From: Candidatus Saccharimonadota bacterium
GTDB taxonomy: Bacteria; Patescibacteriota; Saccharimonadia; Saccharimonadales; Saccharimonadaceae
Direction of reading: 5' to 3'
Assembly: GCA_002421785.1 (NCBI GenBank)
Contig: DIRZ01000003.1
Span: 60,001 to 92,000, forward strand
Length of the DNA: 32,000 bases
This document shows positions 25,264-32,000 of this stretch, one piece after another; the first letter of the stretch is position 1; each line of letters starts with the position of its first letter. The notes beneath the pieces are model-generated. The model saw nothing but the letters and a program-made list of their open reading frames with translations. It made no database searches and was not told the DNA's origin. The translations under genes and the position numbers were made by a program.

Positions 25264-25356
25264 CCTATTCAGTCATGTCACGTGTAACCGACAATATCCA
25301 TGCATACGCTAAGAGCTGTCCAATCAGCTCAACGACAAGGAGCGTCGTAAAGTGAG

Positions 25357-25806
25357 TCAGATTAAATACACCATGAGAAGCATCGTAGTGCCGACTGCTG
25401 CGTAGCCGATACGGTAGGTTCGCGCGTGAAAGCCGGAGTGAACGCGGCGAAGCGTAAGGATGAGGCCGCTGAGGACAAAAAACTGTCCATAGCCAAAGAT
25501 ATTATGAATAACGGGAAACGTATCGAAAGGGAATGCCCCAACACCCACCAAGCATATGGCAACCACCACCAACGCCGCTTGTAGCTGCCGTGCGCCGCTA
25601 CTGCTGTGTCGGCGACGCATTTCGTCAGCTATGCGCGTGGCCAGCAATATCAGCACCATGGCGGCGAGTATCATCGTCCCATTGAATATAAACGACGCAG
25701 TGCTGTTGCCTTCGCCGAGCCTGCTAAGGTGCCAGTTTGCCCACTTCGTGTCCTGCGTGAGAAGCATACTGAGTGCAAAGCCAGTTGTAATAATACCCAG
25801 GAGCAC
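25357..25806 (-). CDS. hypothetical 4-TM membrane protein
   Basis: 149 aa with a GTG start and an in-frame stop 14 codons upstream. It lies 56 nt downstream of the Nudix gene and may be the last gene of that operon. Confidence 0.5.
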   Translation of the reverse strand: MLLGIITTGFALSMLLTQDTKWANWHLSRLGEGNSTASFIFNGTMILAAMVLILLATRIADEMRRRHSSSGARQLQAALVVVAICLVGVGAFPFDTFPVIHNIFGYGQFFVLSGLILTLRRVHSGFHARTYRIGYAAVGTTMLLMVYLI

Positions 25807-25862
25807 CCATGCAAAGGAGTAACTTGTGGGTTTGGGATGGAATACTCTTCAGAGAAAATGCA

Positions 25863-26384
25863 TCATACTGAATCTGCTGCACGCAGTATAGCGATGTCGC
25901 GGGCTTTCATCATCGCGAGGCCGGTCGCGCTACCATCTTCGTCTAGAGTGTCACTACTTTCAATCCATTCAATTGCCTGCTCGATTGTTTCCGCCCAACA
26001 GAGCTCCATACCCTCGGACTGTTCTTTTTCGGTTAGTTCAGTGCCCACAAAATCGCCCGCTAGCGCCGTGTAGCAGTACGAAATTTGGTGCATGCCGCAG
26101 TAGTAACGGTTTTCGGTCACTGTGCCAAGTTCGGCTACGTCCGTGATAGTGTAGCCGGTTTCTTCGCGAAGCTCGCGATGAAGCGCCGCGAGAATGTCTT
26201 CGTCCTCGTCTATTCCGCCACCAGGCAGTTTGTACGAACCTGTTACAGTGAAGTGCATAACAGCAATCTGATCACGATCATTACGCATCACGGCACGTGC
26301 GGCTTGCCGTGTGTAATTAACTGATGTGTCAGTGGTCTCGTGAAGCCCTATATCGTGCTGATCGAGGTCGAGAATAAGATTCAT
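25863..26384 (-). CDS. Nudix hydrolase
   Basis: 173 aa from the ATG at 26384. The Nudix box is GGGIDEDEDILAALHRELREETGY (GX5EX7REUXEEXGU). Confidence 0.85.
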   Translation of the reverse strand: MNLILDLDQHDIGLHETTDTSVNYTRQAARAVMRNDRDQIAVMHFTVTGSYKLPGGGIDEDEDILAALHRELREETGYTITDVAELGTVTENRYYCGMHQISYCYTALAGDFVGTELTEKEQSEGMELCWAETIEQAIEWIESSDTLDEDGSATGLAMMKARDIAILRAADSV

Positions 26385-26406
26385 TTTACTAATATAACAT
26401 AGACTA

Positions 26407-27078
26407 TTAGAGGGCTTTATCCCTCTTCTGAAAAAATGCTCGAAATACCGCACGGCTCCCCGTGTTTTCTTGTTTTACTTCCTCGCCCTGATCGCTGGCC
26501 AGCTCAAAATCGACCGCATCCATCATCGATACAAATGTTTCGCGTGGGAGGAGTGTTTGGGGTAGTCCTTCTTGGGTAAGAACTGAGTAGCCATCCGGCG
26601 AAGTTACTGTGTACGTATCATCCCAAGCTTTATTGGTGAATATGTTGAGTAGAACAAACCCCGAAGGCTTTGTTACTCGAGCTAACTCTTCGAGTGCTCG
26701 TACGTATTCTTCTATGGTGTTCGCTTGGTGCAGGACACCAGTCGTAACAACAATATCGAATACCTCATTATCGGCGGGAATGGCGAGGATGGAACCTTCG
26801 TGAATATCGGCAACCAGCCCGAGTGAATCCAGACGCGCATGCGTGGCGACTAGCATGCCAGGGTTAACGTCGACACTCGTTACCAGATGGCCAAGACTGG
26901 CGAGTAATTCCGAATGACGCCCGCCCCCACACCCTAAATCGAGTACACGGGCATGAGGATGAGTCTCCGTAAAATGTTCCATAAACGCTACGATTCGAGG
27001 ATCGGCTGGTTTACTTTCAAAATATCGTGTGATGTCAGGTGAATTCCAAAATTGACGCTCCGACCGTGTGATAGCCAT
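26407..27078 (-). CDS. class I SAM-dependent methyltransferase
   Basis: 223 aa from the ATG at 27078, 1 nt after the upstream stop. Motif I is VLDLGCGGGRHS; post-I is VTSVDVNP. An alternative ATG at 27102 exists. Confidence 0.8.
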   Translation of the reverse strand: MAITRSERQFWNSPDITRYFESKPADPRIVAFMEHFTETHPHARVLDLGCGGGRHSELLASLGHLVTSVDVNPGMLVATHARLDSLGLVADIHEGSILAIPADNEVFDIVVTTGVLHQANTIEEYVRALEELARVTKPSGFVLLNIFTNKAWDDTYTVTSPDGYSVLTQEGLPQTLLPRETFVSMMDAVDFELASDQGEEVKQENTGSRAVFRAFFQKRDKAL

Positions 27079-27079
27079 A

Positions 27080-28177
27080 TTATTGCTTACCTTTCTTGCC
27101 AACGGATTCTACGAGATATGTTTCCGAGAACAAAGACACATGGTAGGTGTTCATGTCTAGCTCAGCAAATTTTTTTGAAATGCGCTCAGGTTCAGAAGTG
27201 ACCGCGAAGAATCCTGGGCCCACAGATGAAAGCGAGATCATAGCAACTGCCTCGTCGTCGGCAAATGGACGTAGCTGTTCGGCAATATCATTAATTCTAG
27301 GTAACACGAACGAGCAGTTCTTGATACTGCCCATATTCCAGCGGTAATCAAAAATTAGCCTCTTACAGCTATCAAACTTGCCCAGTTGCAGGTCGGGTAA
27401 CACTTGATGCACTAGGTGGTAAGCGATGTCCTTGCCATAGTGTTCGCCGGTTGAAATGAATCCATCCATGTTGTCTTCTTCAAGCTGCATTAGTGTGCGG
27501 GAATCTGGATGCTGGAAGTCTATCGGTATACCAATGACAACTGAGTAGCGTTCCGGAAAGGCAGAGCGCATAATCGGCGTGGCTTCGCCAGCCAACACAA
27601 TAAGGCTGCCGCTGTAGTTTCCGCAAACTGCAGAACCACCGATACATTGTACTGCTACGAGTGTATCATCGCTGCCATCAAGCTCCTCCCCATGGTTCTG
27701 AGCACAGTACAAACATAACGCATGCGGATCAATAGGGCGCCCGTACAGCTCATTGATAGCTGATGCGACGGCTGCTATGGTGCCGCTGCTAGAGCCAAGT
27801 CCGCAGTGACGCAGGCTAAGTTCGTCCTCTACATCAATTTGCAAGGTATCACGAATGCCGAGGGTTTGCCGCATCAGAAGAGCTGCGTGTAGCACCAACG
27901 ACCTACGGCCGGTTCGTTCGCTTATCTCGATCTCTCGTCCCGTGAATGGTACGATACGTACACTAACTCTCTTGAAGAGAGCGACACAGACATCAATTTG
28001 ACCTGCGGTGTACACAAGTGAGTCGTTAGTTGCGATTTTAGCGGGATCGAGCGCCATTGCTTCGAGTCTCGCAGGATATTTAATACATATCGACTCCCCC
28101 TGTTTCACGGCGTTTCGGTTGATTGTACAGGTATTCGTAATAGTACCAGCCGGAAATGTTGCAACGATTTTAGGCAT
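27080..28177 (-). CDS. GHMP-kinase-fold protein, tentatively beta-RFAP synthase / C-glycoside synthase-like
   Basis: 365 aa from the ATG at 28177, with SD AAGGGAGAG and an 8-nt overlap with the upstream gene. The central motif HCGLGSSSGTIAAVASAINELYG is GHMP motif II-like. The N-terminal YPARLEAMALDP resembles the (T/S)PSR(L/I)HxxLxD motif I recall for beta-RFAP synthases. Confidence 0.5.
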   Translation of the reverse strand: MPKIVATFPAGTITNTCTINRNAVKQGESICIKYPARLEAMALDPAKIATNDSLVYTAGQIDVCVALFKRVSVRIVPFTGREIEISERTGRRSLVLHAALLMRQTLGIRDTLQIDVEDELSLRHCGLGSSSGTIAAVASAINELYGRPIDPHALCLYCAQNHGEELDGSDDTLVAVQCIGGSAVCGNYSGSLIVLAGEATPIMRSAFPERYSVVIGIPIDFQHPDSRTLMQLEEDNMDGFISTGEHYGKDIAYHLVHQVLPDLQLGKFDSCKRLIFDYRWNMGSIKNCSFVLPRINDIAEQLRPFADDEAVAMISLSSVGPGFFAVTSEPERISKKFAELDMNTYHVSLFSETYLVESVGKKGKQ

Positions 28178-29177
28178 GCTGCTCTCCCTTGGCGTCTTGT
28201 AGTCGGCGTAGGTTCTCCTGGGTCTTGTCGATGAGCACGTCAAGAATATCCGGCGTGTAGGTGCCGCTCCCTACGCTGTCGTCGCCCCGTAACTTGAAAT
28301 TATCTTGGGCGATTCGTCGGTGTGGGAAACGAAATTTCTTGAGCTTTTGGAATATAGCTATCGCAGCATCTTGACCCGCACTATCATTACCCTCAATAAG
28401 TAAATCAACGACGCTCCGACCATTTTGCCGATCAGTGCATTGCTGTATCCATGCGCGCTGGTCAGGGCTTAAATAGCGAACATTGTCGGCGTAGTAATCC
28501 ATATATACCTTGTCTGCACTGCCTACTCCCCACAGCACATAATCTGTTGCGATTAGCTGTAGTTGCGCACCACCCGCACCCGCATAGGAGGTTCCCCCTA
28601 TTTCCACGGCATCAAAATATGGCCGCAACTCATTGGTAAAGTATGTCGCAGTTACGCCACGACGTACTGCAATAATTGACTCAATGAGAGTATCGAGACT
28701 CTTATCAATAGCAGCGAGTCCTGTTTGAATGTCATTTTCCGCGAACACTCGCATGGCATGTTCGGCATCAGCAGAGCTTGTTCGAACAGAGTCAATAAAC
28801 AGCGCTTCCGCATCGCTACCCGTAAATGAGCGTTGACGCTCATCGCTTGGGTTAACATGGGCATATGTAGTGACTGTTCCTCGTGGAACTGTGTTCGCGA
28901 TTCTCCCCAGGGCCATAAGTATGCGCTCGAAGCCATTAACTGATTCAATATAATTCTCCCCGTGACGTATCCCGGAGCTCAATATGAAATCCGAATCGCG
29001 CAGAGAGGCTAATGCATCTGCTGCTGAGAACTCGCTAGGTACCGTGTCTGTAGCGATTCCGTTTGCAATATTGCGAAGTGTGCCGACATCTGCGCGCTCA
29101 TTTATTAGCGGAAGCTCACGCAGTCGTTCGTCAAGACCAAGTGGGTCTAGCTTACGAACAGATTCATAGTCCATCAT
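28170..29177 (-). CDS. PrnB (monodechloroaminopyrrolnitrin synthase)-like / TDO-superfamily heme protein, tentative
   Basis: 335 aa. Segments NPSDERQRSFTGSDAEALFIDSVR, ELRPYFDAVEIGGTSYAGAGGAQLQLIATDYVLWG and FRFPHRRIA...VGSGTYTPDIL resemble what I recall of PrnB and the TDO proximal-His motif (WRxxH...GTGGSSG). Confidence 0.45.
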   Translation of the reverse strand: MMDYESVRKLDPLGLDERLRELPLINERADVGTLRNIANGIATDTVPSEFSAADALASLRDSDFILSSGIRHGENYIESVNGFERILMALGRIANTVPRGTVTTYAHVNPSDERQRSFTGSDAEALFIDSVRTSSADAEHAMRVFAENDIQTGLAAIDKSLDTLIESIIAVRRGVTATYFTNELRPYFDAVEIGGTSYAGAGGAQLQLIATDYVLWGVGSADKVYMDYYADNVRYLSPDQRAWIQQCTDRQNGRSVVDLLIEGNDSAGQDAAIAIFQKLKKFRFPHRRIAQDNFKLRGDDSVGSGTYTPDILDVLIDKTQENLRRLQDAKGEQHA

Positions 29178-29219
29178 ATGTTGGGGCCTCTCTCCACTGC
29201 GTGGATCTGTTTTTTATTA

Positions 29220-29270
29220 TTTATACAGTAGAAGCACTTGTTTGTCAATCGATAAAAAATATGTTATATA
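29220..29270. promoter_or_regulatory. back-to-back divergent promoters sharing one -35 region
   Basis: Plus strand: TTGTCA (29242-29247), 17 nt, TATATA (29265-29270). Minus strand: TTGACA (29243-29248), 17 nt, TATAAA (29220-29225). The two -35 hexamers overlap by 5 nt. Confidence 0.6.
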
Positions 29271-29302
29271 TAGCTTAATATAAACGCACATAAGGAGTAG
29301 GT

Positions 29303-29926
29303 ATGATATTTGTAACCGGTTACCATGCTTCCGGTAAATCATTCCTCGCACGCAAGCTCGCATCAGATTTTAATTTATTTCATGTCGAAACAAGCGCAAT
29401 CGTACAAGCAGCTCATGCAATTGATGCTCCTGAGCGAAGTCTTGGCGATTGGGCTCGCGATATGGAGCATCGTTTCGGGGAGGAATTCTTTGATGACATG
29501 ATCGTCGATGCCGCTGCGCAGGAGTACGTTTGCGAGCTTGCCAGCGGCAGGCAATACAATGATATCATTATTACAGGAAATCGTTCTCTTCGTGGTATAC
29601 GATATGCGGCGTCTGGTTTGTCTGAAAAAATTCCGTTTCTAAAACCCGAGGCACATATTCTATATATTGATGCTGACGAGTCTGTTGCGTACGAGCGGTT
29701 CAAATCTCGAAATCGGCATGAGGGTGATGCGACCATGTCTCTCGAGGACTATCGTGAAATAACTCTCGACGAAGACCAGCGGGGCCTCACTGAGATTCGA
29801 GATAGTGCTGACTATTGCATTACAAATAACGGGACACTCGAGGATCTCGTATACCGAGCCAGTGAAATGCTGGGCGAGAGCGCCGTCCTTGCACGTGAGA
29901 CATATCGCGACTATCGTCATGTATAA
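29303..29926 (+). CDS. P-loop NTPase, nucleotide/nucleoside kinase-like
   Basis: 207 aa with a strong SD (AAGGAG). The Walker A motif is GYHASGKS, at the extreme N-terminus as in small-molecule kinases. ITGNRSLRGI follows. Specificity is unknown. Confidence 0.55.
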   Translation: MIFVTGYHASGKSFLARKLASDFNLFHVETSAIVQAAHAIDAPERSLGDWARDMEHRFGEEFFDDMIVDAAAQEYVCELASGRQYNDIIITGNRSLRGIRYAASGLSEKIPFLKPEAHILYIDADESVAYERFKSRNRHEGDATMSLEDYREITLDEDQRGLTEIRDSADYCITNNGTLEDLVYRASEMLGESAVLARETYRDYRHV

Positions 29927-29956
29927 TAACCATCAGTAGACTAATGGGAGGACCTA

Positions 29957-30517
29957 ATGAGTATTGCGTACGTTACCGGTAATCAATCGAAGTTTCAAAA
30001 CGCTACTGCATTTTTGCAGACAGTAGGCGTTACCATTCATCAAGCTAGTGTGTCTGTCGATGAAATACAGGCAGGCACCGGCATAGAGGTAGCCATACGA
30101 AAAGCACACGACGCTTATAATCAGCTTCAGGAGCCGTTGTTTATCAATGATGCTGAGTGGGCAATTCCTGCGCTTGGCGGCTTCCCGGGGCCATACATGA
30201 AATATATAGTCGGCTGGTTGACGCAGCAGGATCTACTGAAACTCATGGAGGAGAAGTCGGACCGTAGCCTAATACTTCGCGATACCGTCGTATATTACGA
30301 TGGCTCCGTAGAAAAGGTCTTTACCCACGAAGTTCATGGTAAAATTCTTACATCACCTCAGGGCGAGCCCCGTGGACCATTTGTCACGCAGATATTTAGT
30401 CTACGCCAGGATGGTAAGAGTATTGCAGAGGACACAACTATAGGGTTTAGTGAGGATGAGGCAATACTCTGGGCGGAGTTCGCAACATGGCTAAAAACGC
30501 ATATCCCCCAGGCCTGA
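29957..30517 (+). CDS. Ham1/RdgB-family non-canonical purine NTP pyrophosphatase (ITPase-like)
   Basis: 186 aa with SD GGGAGG. Family motifs: VTGNQSKF (TGNxxK), VDEIQ and INDAEWAIPALGGFPGPYMKY. Confidence 0.75.
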   Translation: MSIAYVTGNQSKFQNATAFLQTVGVTIHQASVSVDEIQAGTGIEVAIRKAHDAYNQLQEPLFINDAEWAIPALGGFPGPYMKYIVGWLTQQDLLKLMEEKSDRSLILRDTVVYYDGSVEKVFTHEVHGKILTSPQGEPRGPFVTQIFSLRQDGKSIAEDTTIGFSEDEAILWAEFATWLKTHIPQA

Positions 30518-30589
30518 GACCCTAACTTCTAAGTATGTAGTGTGGCCGACAATTTTGTGTCGACTAGCTATTTCGGTTATGATATAATC

Positions 30590-32000
30590 ATGCGCCTACC
30601 TAACAACCCGACCATCTATGAAATACACACTGCCGCGTACCTAAACGAACTCGCCGTCCGCGACAAAACGAACATTTATCTGGACACAATCCCCGATGAT
30701 GAGCTGAATCGACTCATGACTCTCGGCATTGATGCCGTTTGGTTGATGGGCGTTTGGCAACGGAGTGCTGCGGCTGTGGCTGTGGATATGGCAAATGAGG
30801 GGCTGCAGGCAGAGTTTCGCGCAGTCCTGCCAGATTTTACTCCAGAAGATGTCATCGGTTCTGCCTATGCCGTGCAGGATTATACTGTTGATGCTCGGTT
30901 TGGGGGCGACGATGCATTAGCGCGACTACGTGAGCGACTTTCTCATCGCGGAATTGGCCTGATTCTCGATTTTGTACCCAACCATACCGCCCCAGATCAT
31001 GTGTGGACACGTGAACATGTAGACTACTACATTCATAGCGACAGCAATGCCGCTCTGCGTGAGCCGGATGCCTATGCTGCTGTTGGTGATCACAGTATTG
31101 CCATGGGGCGCGATCCTAACTCAGCCCCCTGGCCAGACGTGTTACAGATGAATGCGTTTTCACCAGGCTACCGCAAAGCAACGGTAGATACTTTAGGGCG
31201 TATTGCATCGATGAGCGACGGCGTTCGCTGCGACATGGCCATGTTGATGCTAGATGATGTCGTACAGCGCACGTGGGGACAGCTCGCAGGTGAGCCGCTC
31301 GCAACCACCTATTGGCAGGACGCCACGCATGCTGTGCGCGAGCAGCACCCTGACTTTACCTTCATCGCCGAATGTTACTGGGACACTGAGCGTACGCTGA
31401 TTGAGCAGGGCTTCGACTACTGTTACGACAAGACACTCTACGACTACCTTGTTGCGAATGATCCGGCCGGTGCGTGCGACTACCTCGCGCGAACGGCTGA
31501 CATCCAGTCGCACATGCTTCATTTCGTCGAAAATCACGATGAGCCTCGAGCAGCAGCTAGGCTCCCCCTTGACCAATCGATGGCGGCTGGCGCAATAACA
31601 GCAACATTGCCTGGGGCAAGCTTGCTCCATCATGGGCAAGTAGAGGGTAAACAGATAAAAATACCCGTACAGCTGGGGCGTGGGGCCCATGAACTGCCCT
31701 GTTCGGCTACTCGGGATTTCTACGGTAAGTTATATGCTTGGCTCAAGGAGTCAAATATTCGAGATGGAACCTGGTCACCACGCGCAACCCAAGATTCGGC
31801 AATCATTACCTACGAGCTGCAGCACGAGCATACCGTCGCCATGCTGCTGGTTAATTATTCGGAGACGCGCACCACCATTGATCTTCCCATTCCCATAGCT
31901 AACTATAGTGATGTGCTAGCGGACAACGACGGCGCGCCCATCATAGTTCAAGCGGCCGCCGACAAGCAGCTTCAGCTCGGGCCATGGCAAACGCGGCTGC
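30590..32000 (+). CDS. GH13 alpha-amylase-family glycoside hydrolase, C-terminus beyond the right edge
   Basis: My translation is open from the ATG at 30590 to the window end (470 codons). GH13 regions: LILDFVPNH (I), GVRCDMA (II), FIAECYW (III), FVENHDE (IV). TATGAT (30578-30583) lies 6 nt upstream of the ATG and there is no SD. Confidence 0.85.
   Translation, partial: MRLPNNPTIYEIHTAAYLNELAVRDKTNIYLDTIPDDELNRLMTLGIDAVWLMGVWQRSAAAVAVDMANEGLQAEFRAVLPDFTPEDVIGSAYAVQDYTVDARFGGDDALARLRERLSHRGIGLILDFVPNHTAPDHVWTREHVDYYIHSDSNAALREPDAYAAVGDHSIAMGRDPNSAPWPDVLQMNAFSPGYRKATVDTLGRIASMSDGVRCDMAMLMLDDVVQRTWGQLAGEPLATTYWQDATHAVREQHPDFTFIAECYWDTERTLIEQGFDYCYDKTLYDYLVANDPAGACDYLARTADIQSHMLHFVENHDEPRAAARLPLDQSMAAGAITATLPGASLLHHGQVEGKQIKIPVQLGRGAHELPCSATRDFYGKLYAWLKESNIRDGTWSPRATQDSAIITYELQHEHTVAMLLVNYSETRTTIDLPIPIANYSDVLADNDGAPIIVQAAADKQLQLGPWQTRL

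Follow-up and report, generated by a model that had tools for sequence, protein, structure and literature searches.

What would a bacterium with a stripped-down genome make with a PrnB-family haem enzyme, a GHMP-fold enzyme, a methyltransferase and a set of nucleotide-handling enzymes encoded side by side? The question is raised by a 32,000-nucleotide stretch of DNA from a Candidatus Saccharimonadota bacterium (GenBank assembly GCA_002421785.1, contig DIRZ01000003.1, positions 60,001 to 92,000 of the forward strand), which we refer to as the window and to which coordinates given without a locus name relate. Patescibacteria, the group to which this organism belongs, are a large radiation of ultra-small, mostly symbiotic bacteria with stripped-down genomes that have lost most biosynthesis. 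A first-pass annotation, made from the sequence alone, had described six divergently arranged genes as a candidate pathway for an aromatic ribonucleotide analogue, a gene combination that it did not recognise from any described pathway. Our literature searches (PrnB with Saccharibacteria, GHMP or nucleoside; COG1907; UPF0200; U32 with GHMP) likewise found no description of this module, nor has any of its steps been described before. Here we report that the module is conserved across tiny-genome Patescibacteria, and we propose that its core is a three-enzyme line leading from the PrnB-like enzyme via the GHMP-fold enzyme to the methyltransferase, flanked by nucleotide-handling enzymes. Our preferred reading, to which we give slightly less than an even chance, is that the module converts tryptophan into a methylated, ribonucleotide-like small molecule.

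The haem enzyme and its GHMP-fold partner

The first gene of the minus-strand operon (28170..29177, minus strand) encodes a protein of 335 amino acids (aa) that matches the Pfam profile hidden Markov model (HMM) PF08933 (DUF1864) with an E-value of 1.4e-25 and 90.3 bits against a cut-off of 27. A profile built from an alignment of 23 PrnB-like relatives matches the solved PrnB structures along their entire length (9dfg, 4e-70; 2v7i, 2e-66), with 27–33% identity to PrnB along the full length, whereas E-values against IDO are only about 0.1–0.4. An AlphaFold2 (AF2) model of the protein, with a predicted local distance difference test score (pLDDT) of 93.7, retrieves PrnB at all of the ranks 1–12 in Foldseek with template modelling (TM) scores of 0.83–0.90, while SO4414 and IDO1 follow at 0.6–0.7 with E-values of 1e-8 or weaker. 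The first-pass annotation had assigned the protein to the PrnB/TDO superfamily by eye; Pfam, profile and structure comparisons agree and place it on the PrnB side, and we conclude that it is a genuine PrnB-family member, not a TDO or IDO.

The residues that matter for substrate binding can be followed into the window protein. In FbPrnB, Gly210, Gly211 and Ser319 hold the carboxylate of tryptophan and Tyr104 shapes the indole pocket (PMC11791213). These positions align to Gly203/Ala204, Ser304 and Tyr105 of the window protein, and His286 aligns to the proximal haem histidine; His286, Gly203, Ser304 and Tyr105 are invariant among the 23 aligned sequences and Ala204 is kept in at least 90% of them. 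The enzyme thus probably still binds an aromatic α-amino acid, and it probably uses O2 either to rearrange L-tryptophan or a close analogue oxidatively or to oxygenate it. The neighbouring genes, both in the window and in the related loci L001–L005, include neither a halogenase (PrnA, PrnC) nor a Rieske oxygenase (PrnD), and the substrate therefore cannot be the 7-chloro-tryptophan of a prn cluster. With the PrnB of the pyrrolnitrin pathway the window enzyme has in common its full-length homology, the fold, the proximal histidine, the carboxylate contacts (Gly-Gly and Ser) and the tyrosine; in contrast to that enzyme it has a GHMP-fold enzyme as its coupled or fused partner, lacks the context of prnA, prnC and prnD, and occurs in Patescibacteria rather than in pseudomonads and Burkholderia.

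The coupling is visible in the window, where the 8 nt ATGCCTAA, read directly at 28177–28170, are common to both genes: the stop codon TAA of the PrnB-like gene occupies 28172–28170 and the start codon ATG of the GHMP gene 28177–28175, with an AAGGGAG located 6 nt 5′ of the latter. The GHMP gene is translationally coupled to the PrnB-like gene via this overlap.

ForT, PyfQ and β-RFAP (RHP) synthase, GHMP-fold C-glycoside synthases of the formycin, pyrazofurin and methanopterin pathways, respectively, join phosphoribosyl pyrophosphate (PRPP) to an aromatic carboxylate under release of CO2 and pyrophosphate. The GHMP-fold protein of the window (365 aa; 27080..28177, minus strand) matches PF00288 (GHMP_kinases_N) with 1e-9 and contains the phosphate-binding loop GLGSSS at residues 126–131; sequence searches alone are ambiguous, with homoserine kinase, mevalonate kinase and ForT all appearing as weak matches. 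An AF2 model (pLDDT 92.1) finds ForT at ranks 1–3 when compared to the Protein Data Bank (PDB) with Foldseek (1.6e-16, TM-scores 0.66/0.73), and kinases follow at 4e-13 or weaker. In profile–profile comparisons with hhalign, a set of five plasmid-borne sequences of the β-RFAP family collected by tblastn scores better (Prob 96.4, E 1.2e-9, score 74.6, 267 columns) than a set of six homoserine kinases (Prob 94.0, E 1.4e-7, score 60.0, 231 columns).

Two motifs set the protein apart from the kinases. Motif I reads P-A-R-L-E-A-M-A-L-D (P-x-Arg37-L...Asp44) and motif II reads R-H-C-GLGS (His124-x-GLGS-x-Ser131), both of the ForT/β-RFAP type, whereas the kinase-type motif I (P-A-[ST]-x-A-N-x-G) and the loop without histidine, exemplified by homoserine kinases with P-A-S-x-A-N and no His, are not found in it. 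Arg19, His99 and Thr106 of ForT bind the pyrophosphate of PRPP (PMC8183095), and the residues aligned to them, Arg37, His124 and Ser131, are invariant in the GHMP alignment. Around the general base Glu211 of ForT the GHMP proteins have an invariant Asp225 and Glu233, in a region where the residue-level alignment is not reliable. A profile search of 1.84 billion representative proteins yielded only 313 GHMP relatives, 110 of them at E-values of 1e-30 or better, and among the weakest-scoring full-length relatives, which represent the nearest outgroup, nine of the ten tested score best on β-RFAP synthase models; a search of the whole database with a fragment of ForT, reconstructed from a HMMER alignment, gave no matches.

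Fold, profiles and outgroup scores thus uphold the relation to β-RFAP synthase and ForT that had been proposed from the sequence, rather than one to ordinary sugar, mevalonate or homoserine kinases. The GHMP protein belongs to a separate clade next to β-RFAP synthase/ForT that has kept the pyrophosphate site. It resembles ForT, PyfQ and β-RFAP synthase in having ForT as closest fold and their family as best profile partner and in sharing the arginine of motif I and the His-x-G-x-GS-x-[ST] of motif II; it differs from them in sharing only 17–19% identity and in its partner enzymes, with no formycin, pyrazofurin or methanopterin gene nearby. Between the Patescibacteria clade and the β-RFAP synthases stand the intermediate proteins P0311–P0338 (329–373 aa), which share the acidic insertion of the GHMP protein described below (N-[FY]-x-E-E ... 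E-T-G-V-G) and are likewise devoid of both arginines of the PRPP 5′-phosphate site. A Mesorhizobium plasmid (NZ_AP023260.1, 145032–146496) carries, away from any methanopterin context, a ForT-like gene of the β-RFAP family that overlaps with a MutT-type Nudix gene, mirroring the pairing of GHMP and Nudix genes in the window.

Conservation, gene fusions and a swap at the entry step

Related loci were collected by looking up homologues of the PrnB-like protein, which at about 40% identity had the same neighbours, and by scanning genomes with the GHMP alignment, which added 43 further loci (a scan of genome contigs with a single PrnB-like sequence gave no matches), and 45 non-redundant loci were counted by script, a neighbour being any gene within 5 kb of the GHMP gene. 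Almost all of them are from Patescibacteria and one is from Nocardia. Ham1 and P-loop kinase genes (the latter in three subtypes) each accompany the GHMP gene in 36 of the 45 loci, a methyltransferase gene in 34, with five additional GHMP–methyltransferase fusions, and PrnB and GreA genes in 25 each, the PrnB count rising to 26 if a fusion in L016 is included. The module proteins of different loci are 40–55% identical, and the recurrence of the same genes together in dozens of loci at this level of divergence means that their clustering is far beyond chance. Co-localisation in related genomes, on which the first-pass annotation had staked its pathway, is thus stronger than could be known from the window. 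The pathway nonetheless shrinks by one member: PrnB, GHMP, methyltransferase, kinase and Ham1 proteins recur, but Nudix genes neighbour the GHMP gene in only four of the 45 loci, and the Nudix gene of the window is an accessory of its lineage outside the conserved module.

Several features tie the members of this set to one another. The PrnB and GHMP genes overlap in L001, L002, L004 and L005, as they do in the window, and PrnB–GHMP fusion proteins of 726–883 aa are represented by an open reading frame (ORF) in L016 (L016:8834-11053, 739 aa) and by P0193 and P0192. In 27 loci the methyltransferase gene follows the GHMP gene directly, in the same orientation, and the two mostly overlap or are no more than 10 nt apart; at least seven representative proteins (P0184, P0225 and others; 526–584 aa) are GHMP–methyltransferase fusions with the methyltransferase at the C-terminus of the GHMP protein. 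The fusion proteins collected are P0193, P0192, P0184, P0191, P0197, P0208, P0218, P0225 and P0242 together with the L016 ORF, and P0192 has an extra N-terminal HEPN/Toprim-like segment. Gene order and strand differ among the loci and the gene set stays together, which argues for a shared function rather than an inherited order. A five-enzyme module that is kept across stripped-down lineages, and sometimes fused, is likely to matter to their biology.

In 12 loci that do not have PrnB (L019, L021, L023, L024, L030–L032, L035, L036, L038, L046 and L048) a U32 protein with four conserved cysteines is found instead, accompanied in 11 of the 12 by a HisC/CobD-like aminotransferase or a two-cysteine amino-acid racemase. 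PrnB is present in 25 of the 45 loci, U32 in 12 and both in none (Fisher p = 4e-6, without correction for phylogeny). The PrnB step of the pathway as originally conceived, present in 25 loci (26 with L016), is dispensable as such: U32 with aminotransferase or racemase takes its place in a third of the clusters. On the GHMP tree the two types of cluster are interleaved, and the active site of the GHMP protein is unchanged between them: the alignment contains no column specific to either type and 66 columns that are at least 90% conserved across all of them. With no type-specific column, the substrate of the GHMP enzyme is apparently the same, and the PrnB and U32 front ends appear to be functionally equivalent in feeding it. 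The characterised U32 enzymes UbiU/V, TrhP and RlhA are O2-independent hydroxylases; by analogy with them, we read the swap as one between an aerobic and an anaerobic route, which suggests interchangeable O2-dependent and O2-independent entry steps. The alternation of UbiI/H/F with UbiU–UbiV in ubiquinone synthesis and of TrhO with TrhP in tRNA ho5U formation follows the same pattern, in that a four-cysteine U32 protein replaces an O2-using enzyme; unlike in those systems, a PrnB-type haem enzyme here takes the part of the O2-using partner, an aminotransferase or racemase accompanies the U32 protein, and the argument for equivalence is the gene exchange alone. In L048 a DAHP-synthase-family gene (L048:8203-8979) lies between the U32 and aminotransferase genes and could relate to the supply of prephenate needed by U32 hydroxylases.

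What recurs around the core trio is the handling of nucleoside phosphates. A protein family of about 190 aa without a Pfam match turned out to be a DNPH1/Rcl-type nucleoside-5′-phosphate N-glycosidase with a ribbon-helix-helix-like tail (PDB 2klh, 1.5e-15), and its genes neighbour the GHMP gene in 12 of the 45 loci (L001:12201-12734, L002:9334-9909, L005:9381-9923 and nine others); in L011 two copies flank a PfkB kinase. L005 also encodes an HAD hydrolase with a weak, below-threshold match of the NT5C type, and a uridine-kinase-type PRK protein is among the variant neighbours.

The one locus from Nocardia, L043, is a genuine Nocardia wallacei contig with a G+C content of 67.5% that encodes a large pyridoxal phosphate (PLP) decarboxylase, PrnB, a methyltransferase, a P450, a KAS III-like protein, a nucleotidyltransferase, the GHMP protein, a P-loop kinase and two ABC transporters. 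L004 is similar, and both clusters look like ones that serve an exported specialised metabolite. Saccharibacteria live on actinobacteria, so that gene exchange is conceivable.

What the module may make

With PrnB similarity, a β-RFAP-like GHMP protein and co-localisation all found, neither of the two outcomes that the first-pass annotation had named as fatal to its interpretation has come about, and that interpretation finds partial support. What we infer is the substrate and the donor, the sequence of steps, the product with its chemistry, and the biological role. The haem enzyme would bind L-tryptophan, or a close analogue, by its amino-acid end and use O2 to oxidise or rearrange the indole; PrnB itself makes an aminophenyl-pyrrole. 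The GHMP enzyme, which would not be a conventional kinase, would then couple this aromatic compound to a donor activated by a diphosphate, PRPP being the most likely one, and the methyltransferase would methylate the resulting ribosyl-5′-phosphate. The P-loop kinase would raise and the Ham1 protein lower the phosphate state of this compound, with contributions from the Nudix hydrolase in the window and from the DNPH1-like N-glycosidase elsewhere, and these enzymes together would either bring the synthesis to completion or prevent the analogue from entering nucleic acids. Other lineages would carry out the entry step without O2, by means of the four-cysteine U32 protein with the HisC-like aminotransferase or amino-acid racemase. 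A more specific version is less likely than not: that Patescibacteria contain a hitherto unrecognised tryptophan-derived ribonucleotide, C- or N-linked and methylated, which cycles between mono- and triphosphate, is made by a clade sister to β-RFAP synthase/ForT after an O2-dependent or O2-independent entry step, and functions as a lineage-wide cofactor, a signal or an antimetabolite directed at the host.

A number of observations weigh against ribosylation of a tryptophan product. Full reconstitution of PrnB itself in vitro has never been achieved (PMC11791213). In eight of the 45 loci neither PrnB nor U32 was scored; L016, among them, was later recognised as a PrnB–GHMP fusion, and the remaining ones are mostly short contigs, although neither L011 nor L029 is one. 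The lead of ForT over the kinases in Foldseek amounts to only about three orders of magnitude at similar TM-scores, the curated β-RFAP models score far below their cut-offs (NF040726, 21.1 bits against 328; TIGR00144, 19.2 against 113.5), and these NCBIfam scores are no better than that of homoserine kinase (32 bits). The motif G-R-x-x-[RT]-S-G-x-G of ForT and β-RFAP synthases binds the 5′-phosphate of PRPP and is essential by mutagenesis (PMC8183095), and this site (Gly134-Arg135, Ser139 and Ser142 of ForT) is absent from the GHMP protein. It aligns instead to Gln160 and Ile179-Gly180-Gly181, with a 15-residue insertion, rich in acidic residues, that carries an invariant H162-G-E-E (QNHGEE) whose acidic pair looks more like a Mg2+ ligand of GHMP kinases. 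The invariant Glu164 and Glu165 are near the position of the homoserine kinase glutamate, which hhalign pairs with His162 instead. The ForT-type use of PRPP put forward in the first-pass annotation is therefore borne out for the pyrophosphate residues and fails at Arg135, Ser139 and Ser142; owing to this replacement PRPP is only a candidate, and the donor may be PRPP, another diphosphate or ATP.

If the donor were ATP, the module could be a hydroxylase–kinase–methyltransferase route to a phosphorylated and methylated tryptophan derivative without ribose, in which the PrnB-like enzyme or U32 would insert an oxygen, the GHMP protein, as a true ATP-dependent kinase, would phosphorylate this oxygen or the amino-acid moiety, the methyltransferase would complete the molecule and the nucleotide enzymes would be housekeeping for co-substrates. 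We consider this rather unlikely, but it draws on the intact GHMP phosphate loop, on the place of Glu164/Glu165 and on the missing ForT site, and homoserine kinase is the best single-sequence and profile match in the PDB and NCBIfam. The HisC/CobD-like PLP enzyme directly 5′ of the GHMP gene in U32-type clusters resembles the combination of PduX, a GHMP threonine kinase, with CobD, and the PLP decarboxylase in L004 and L043, the APH-type kinase in L004 and the sulfotransferases in L004 and L005 are typical of the tailoring of amine metabolites. The psilocybin pathway provides a precedent, with a hydroxylase, a kinase and an S-adenosylmethionine (SAM) methyltransferase acting on a tryptophan scaffold and a role of PsiD to which the PLP decarboxylase of the variant clusters would correspond; its P450, APH-type kinase and METTL16-like methyltransferase are, however, unrelated to the families of the module, and it has no nucleotide-handling genes. 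An ATP-dependent kinase would moreover have to carry the β-RFAP/ForT-type motif I (P-x-R-L...D) and the histidine of motif II, have ForT as its best fold match and a β-RFAP-like nearest outgroup, and it would leave the recruitment of at least five nucleotide-handling families beside the module unexplained. The synthesis of aminopropanol phosphate of the PduX/CobD type was rejected because it fits the U32-type clusters only.

Distinctly less probable is the modification of an ordinary nucleotide or nucleobase, in which U32 or the PrnB-like enzyme would hydroxylate a ring, the methyltransferase would act on the resulting oxygen, Ham1, DNPH1-like and Nudix proteins would sanitise and the kinases re-phosphorylate. 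The U32 proteins TrhP and RlhA are known to hydroxylate pyrimidine C5 in RNA, and the sole NCBIfam match of the cluster U32 protein, a weak one, is to TrhP; relatives of DNPH1 hydrolyse hydroxymethyl-dUMP, judging by the names of PDB entries, and Ham1 and Nudix proteins are classic sanitisers of nucleotide pools. However, the PrnB-like protein keeps the α-amino-acid carboxylate residues and the fold of tryptophan-bound PrnB, the aminotransferase or racemase beside U32 points to an amino-acid substrate, and we know of no GHMP enzyme that acts on nucleotides. That the genes have no joint function and are neighbours by inherited gene order in small genomes is hardly credible. The unrelated housekeeping gene greA accompanies the GHMP gene in 25 of the 45 loci, so part of the synteny is indeed simply inherited, and the scans for promoters and terminators gave no evidence of either: with a consensus sigma-70 model no site in the divergent spacer passed and none exceeded the shuffled expectation, and the terminator scan run alongside was uninformative. 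Yet the families remain together while order and orientation are shuffled, stop and start codons overlap, two kinds of gene fusion occur, and the module also appears with exporters in the G+C-rich Nocardia contig. Two further functions were discarded: a substitute for the de novo synthesis of nicotinamide adenine dinucleotide (NAD), with the GHMP protein as an analogue of quinolinate phosphoribosyltransferase (QPRT) and a tryptophan route set against an aspartate route, which the haem-versus-Fe–S and racemase pattern makes attractive, because one haem enzyme cannot make quinolinate, and the synthesis of a free pseudouridine-type nucleotide, for which there is no evidence.

If our preferred reading, a ribonucleotide-like product made from tryptophan, is true, the module would yield a new natural nucleotide analogue, add a new branch to the rare GHMP-fold glycoside synthases, give PrnB-type chemistry its first physiological role outside pyrrolnitrin and constitute the first case of a U32 Fe–S enzyme substituting for a haem oxygenase. 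Three or four small soluble proteins would suffice to test the model directly, and the natural fusions offer ready-made constructs.

Accessory genes and surroundings of the cluster

The six ORFs and a seventh, small one were confirmed at the positions first described, as were the junctions between them, and profile HMMs upheld all of the families (PrnB, GHMP, methyltransferase, Nudix, P-loop and Ham1) that had been called by eye. On the minus strand, the GHMP stop codon TAA at 27082–27080 is separated by the single base 27079 from the ATG at 27078 of the gene for a class I SAM-dependent methyltransferase (223 aa; 26407..27078), and the stop codon of the latter at 26409–26407 by a 22-nt gap from the ATG at 26384 of the Nudix gene (173 aa; 25863..26384). 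An AT-rich intergenic region of 125 nt (29178..29302), read directly, separates this operon from two plus-strand genes, encoding a P-loop kinase of the adenylate-kinase-related type (207 aa; 29303..29926) and a nucleoside-triphosphate pyrophosphatase with the Ham1/ITPase fold (186 aa; 29957..30517). An AAGGAG precedes the kinase ATG at 29303 by 8 nt. For three genes longer ORFs are possible from upstream TTG or GTG codons; the ribosome-binding sites favour the start codons chosen in the first-pass annotation.

The methyltransferase matches Methyltransf_11 (7e-19) and Methyltransf_25 (5e-18), and a PDB search with it found only generic relatives. The kinase matches AAA_17, AAA_33 and AAA_18 and is similar over its full length to the archaeal ‘adenylate kinase related protein’ SSO1041 (3h0k/3lw7, 5e-5) and to adenylate kinase 9. 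The Ham1 protein passes Pfam (PF01725, 4e-21, 76 bits), remains below the cut-offs of the equivalog models (NF011396, 112 bits against 203; TIGR00042, 76 against 145) and matches MJ0226 (1b78) with 1.3e-17, in an alignment that stops before the SHR region. In canonical Ham1 proteins a C-terminal Ser-His-Arg (SHR) motif reads the purine base. The window protein lacks this motif, as do both subtypes of cluster-linked Ham1 proteins, ‘FINDA...GFPGPYMKY’ and ‘IREDHS...PGPY’, and the specificity of these enzymes is therefore probably altered. A weak match connects the window Ham1 to KomB, a Ham1-like protein of the Kongming anti-phage system (PDB 8zsg); a PADLOC scan gave no meaningful defence-system match. 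The Nudix protein (PF00293, 8e-15) has an intact Nudix box GX5EX7REUXEEXGU within GGIDEDEDILAALHRELREETGY, as read from the translation, and an Ap4A hydrolase as nearest solved relative (1e-7), its PDB matches being generic throughout.

A strain with 95% nucleotide identity to the window (L060) has the same seven-gene layout, including the Nudix gene. The seventh gene, encoding a DUF998 membrane protein (149 aa; 25357..25806, minus strand; PF06197, 4e-10), had been suggested as the last gene of the operon. The ORF is where it was reported, but a DUF998 gene neighbours the GHMP gene in none of the 45 loci and no homologue was found in 48 related loci, and it is outside the conserved module. In L060 the protein has 200 aa, and the window copy is shortened at both ends: comparison of 25264–25882 with L060 shows a CGA>TGA change at codon 6 of the longer form and a deletion of 1 nt close to the 3′ end, changes that could reflect either decay of the gene or an error in sequencing.

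The six-gene cluster had seemed unexpected in an otherwise minimal genome. On the contrary, the module is typical of Patescibacteria, and the G+C content of the cluster is the same as that of the remainder of the window; for these two reasons a horizontally acquired island was ruled out. The roughly 1.5 kb 3′ of the Ham1 gene (30518–32000) are without a convincing ORF, which is unusual for a compact genome; the sole ORF of at least 100 aa there is Cys-rich and of odd composition, and the region has no Rfam match, tRNA or notable repeat, Rfam and tRNA scans having given no matches anywhere in the window. The greA gene, absent from the window, adjoins the module elsewhere (e.g. L003:6614-7084) on either side and in either orientation, and a link of the module to GreA or transcription was rejected because the adjacency looks like inherited synteny. 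In L001, from the Saccharimonadales, type IV secretion genes (TraG/VirB4-like and CHAP), a serine recombinase and a relaxase-like gene lie beside the module (L001:14990-21029 and L001:2479-5701), which may there ride on a mobile element.

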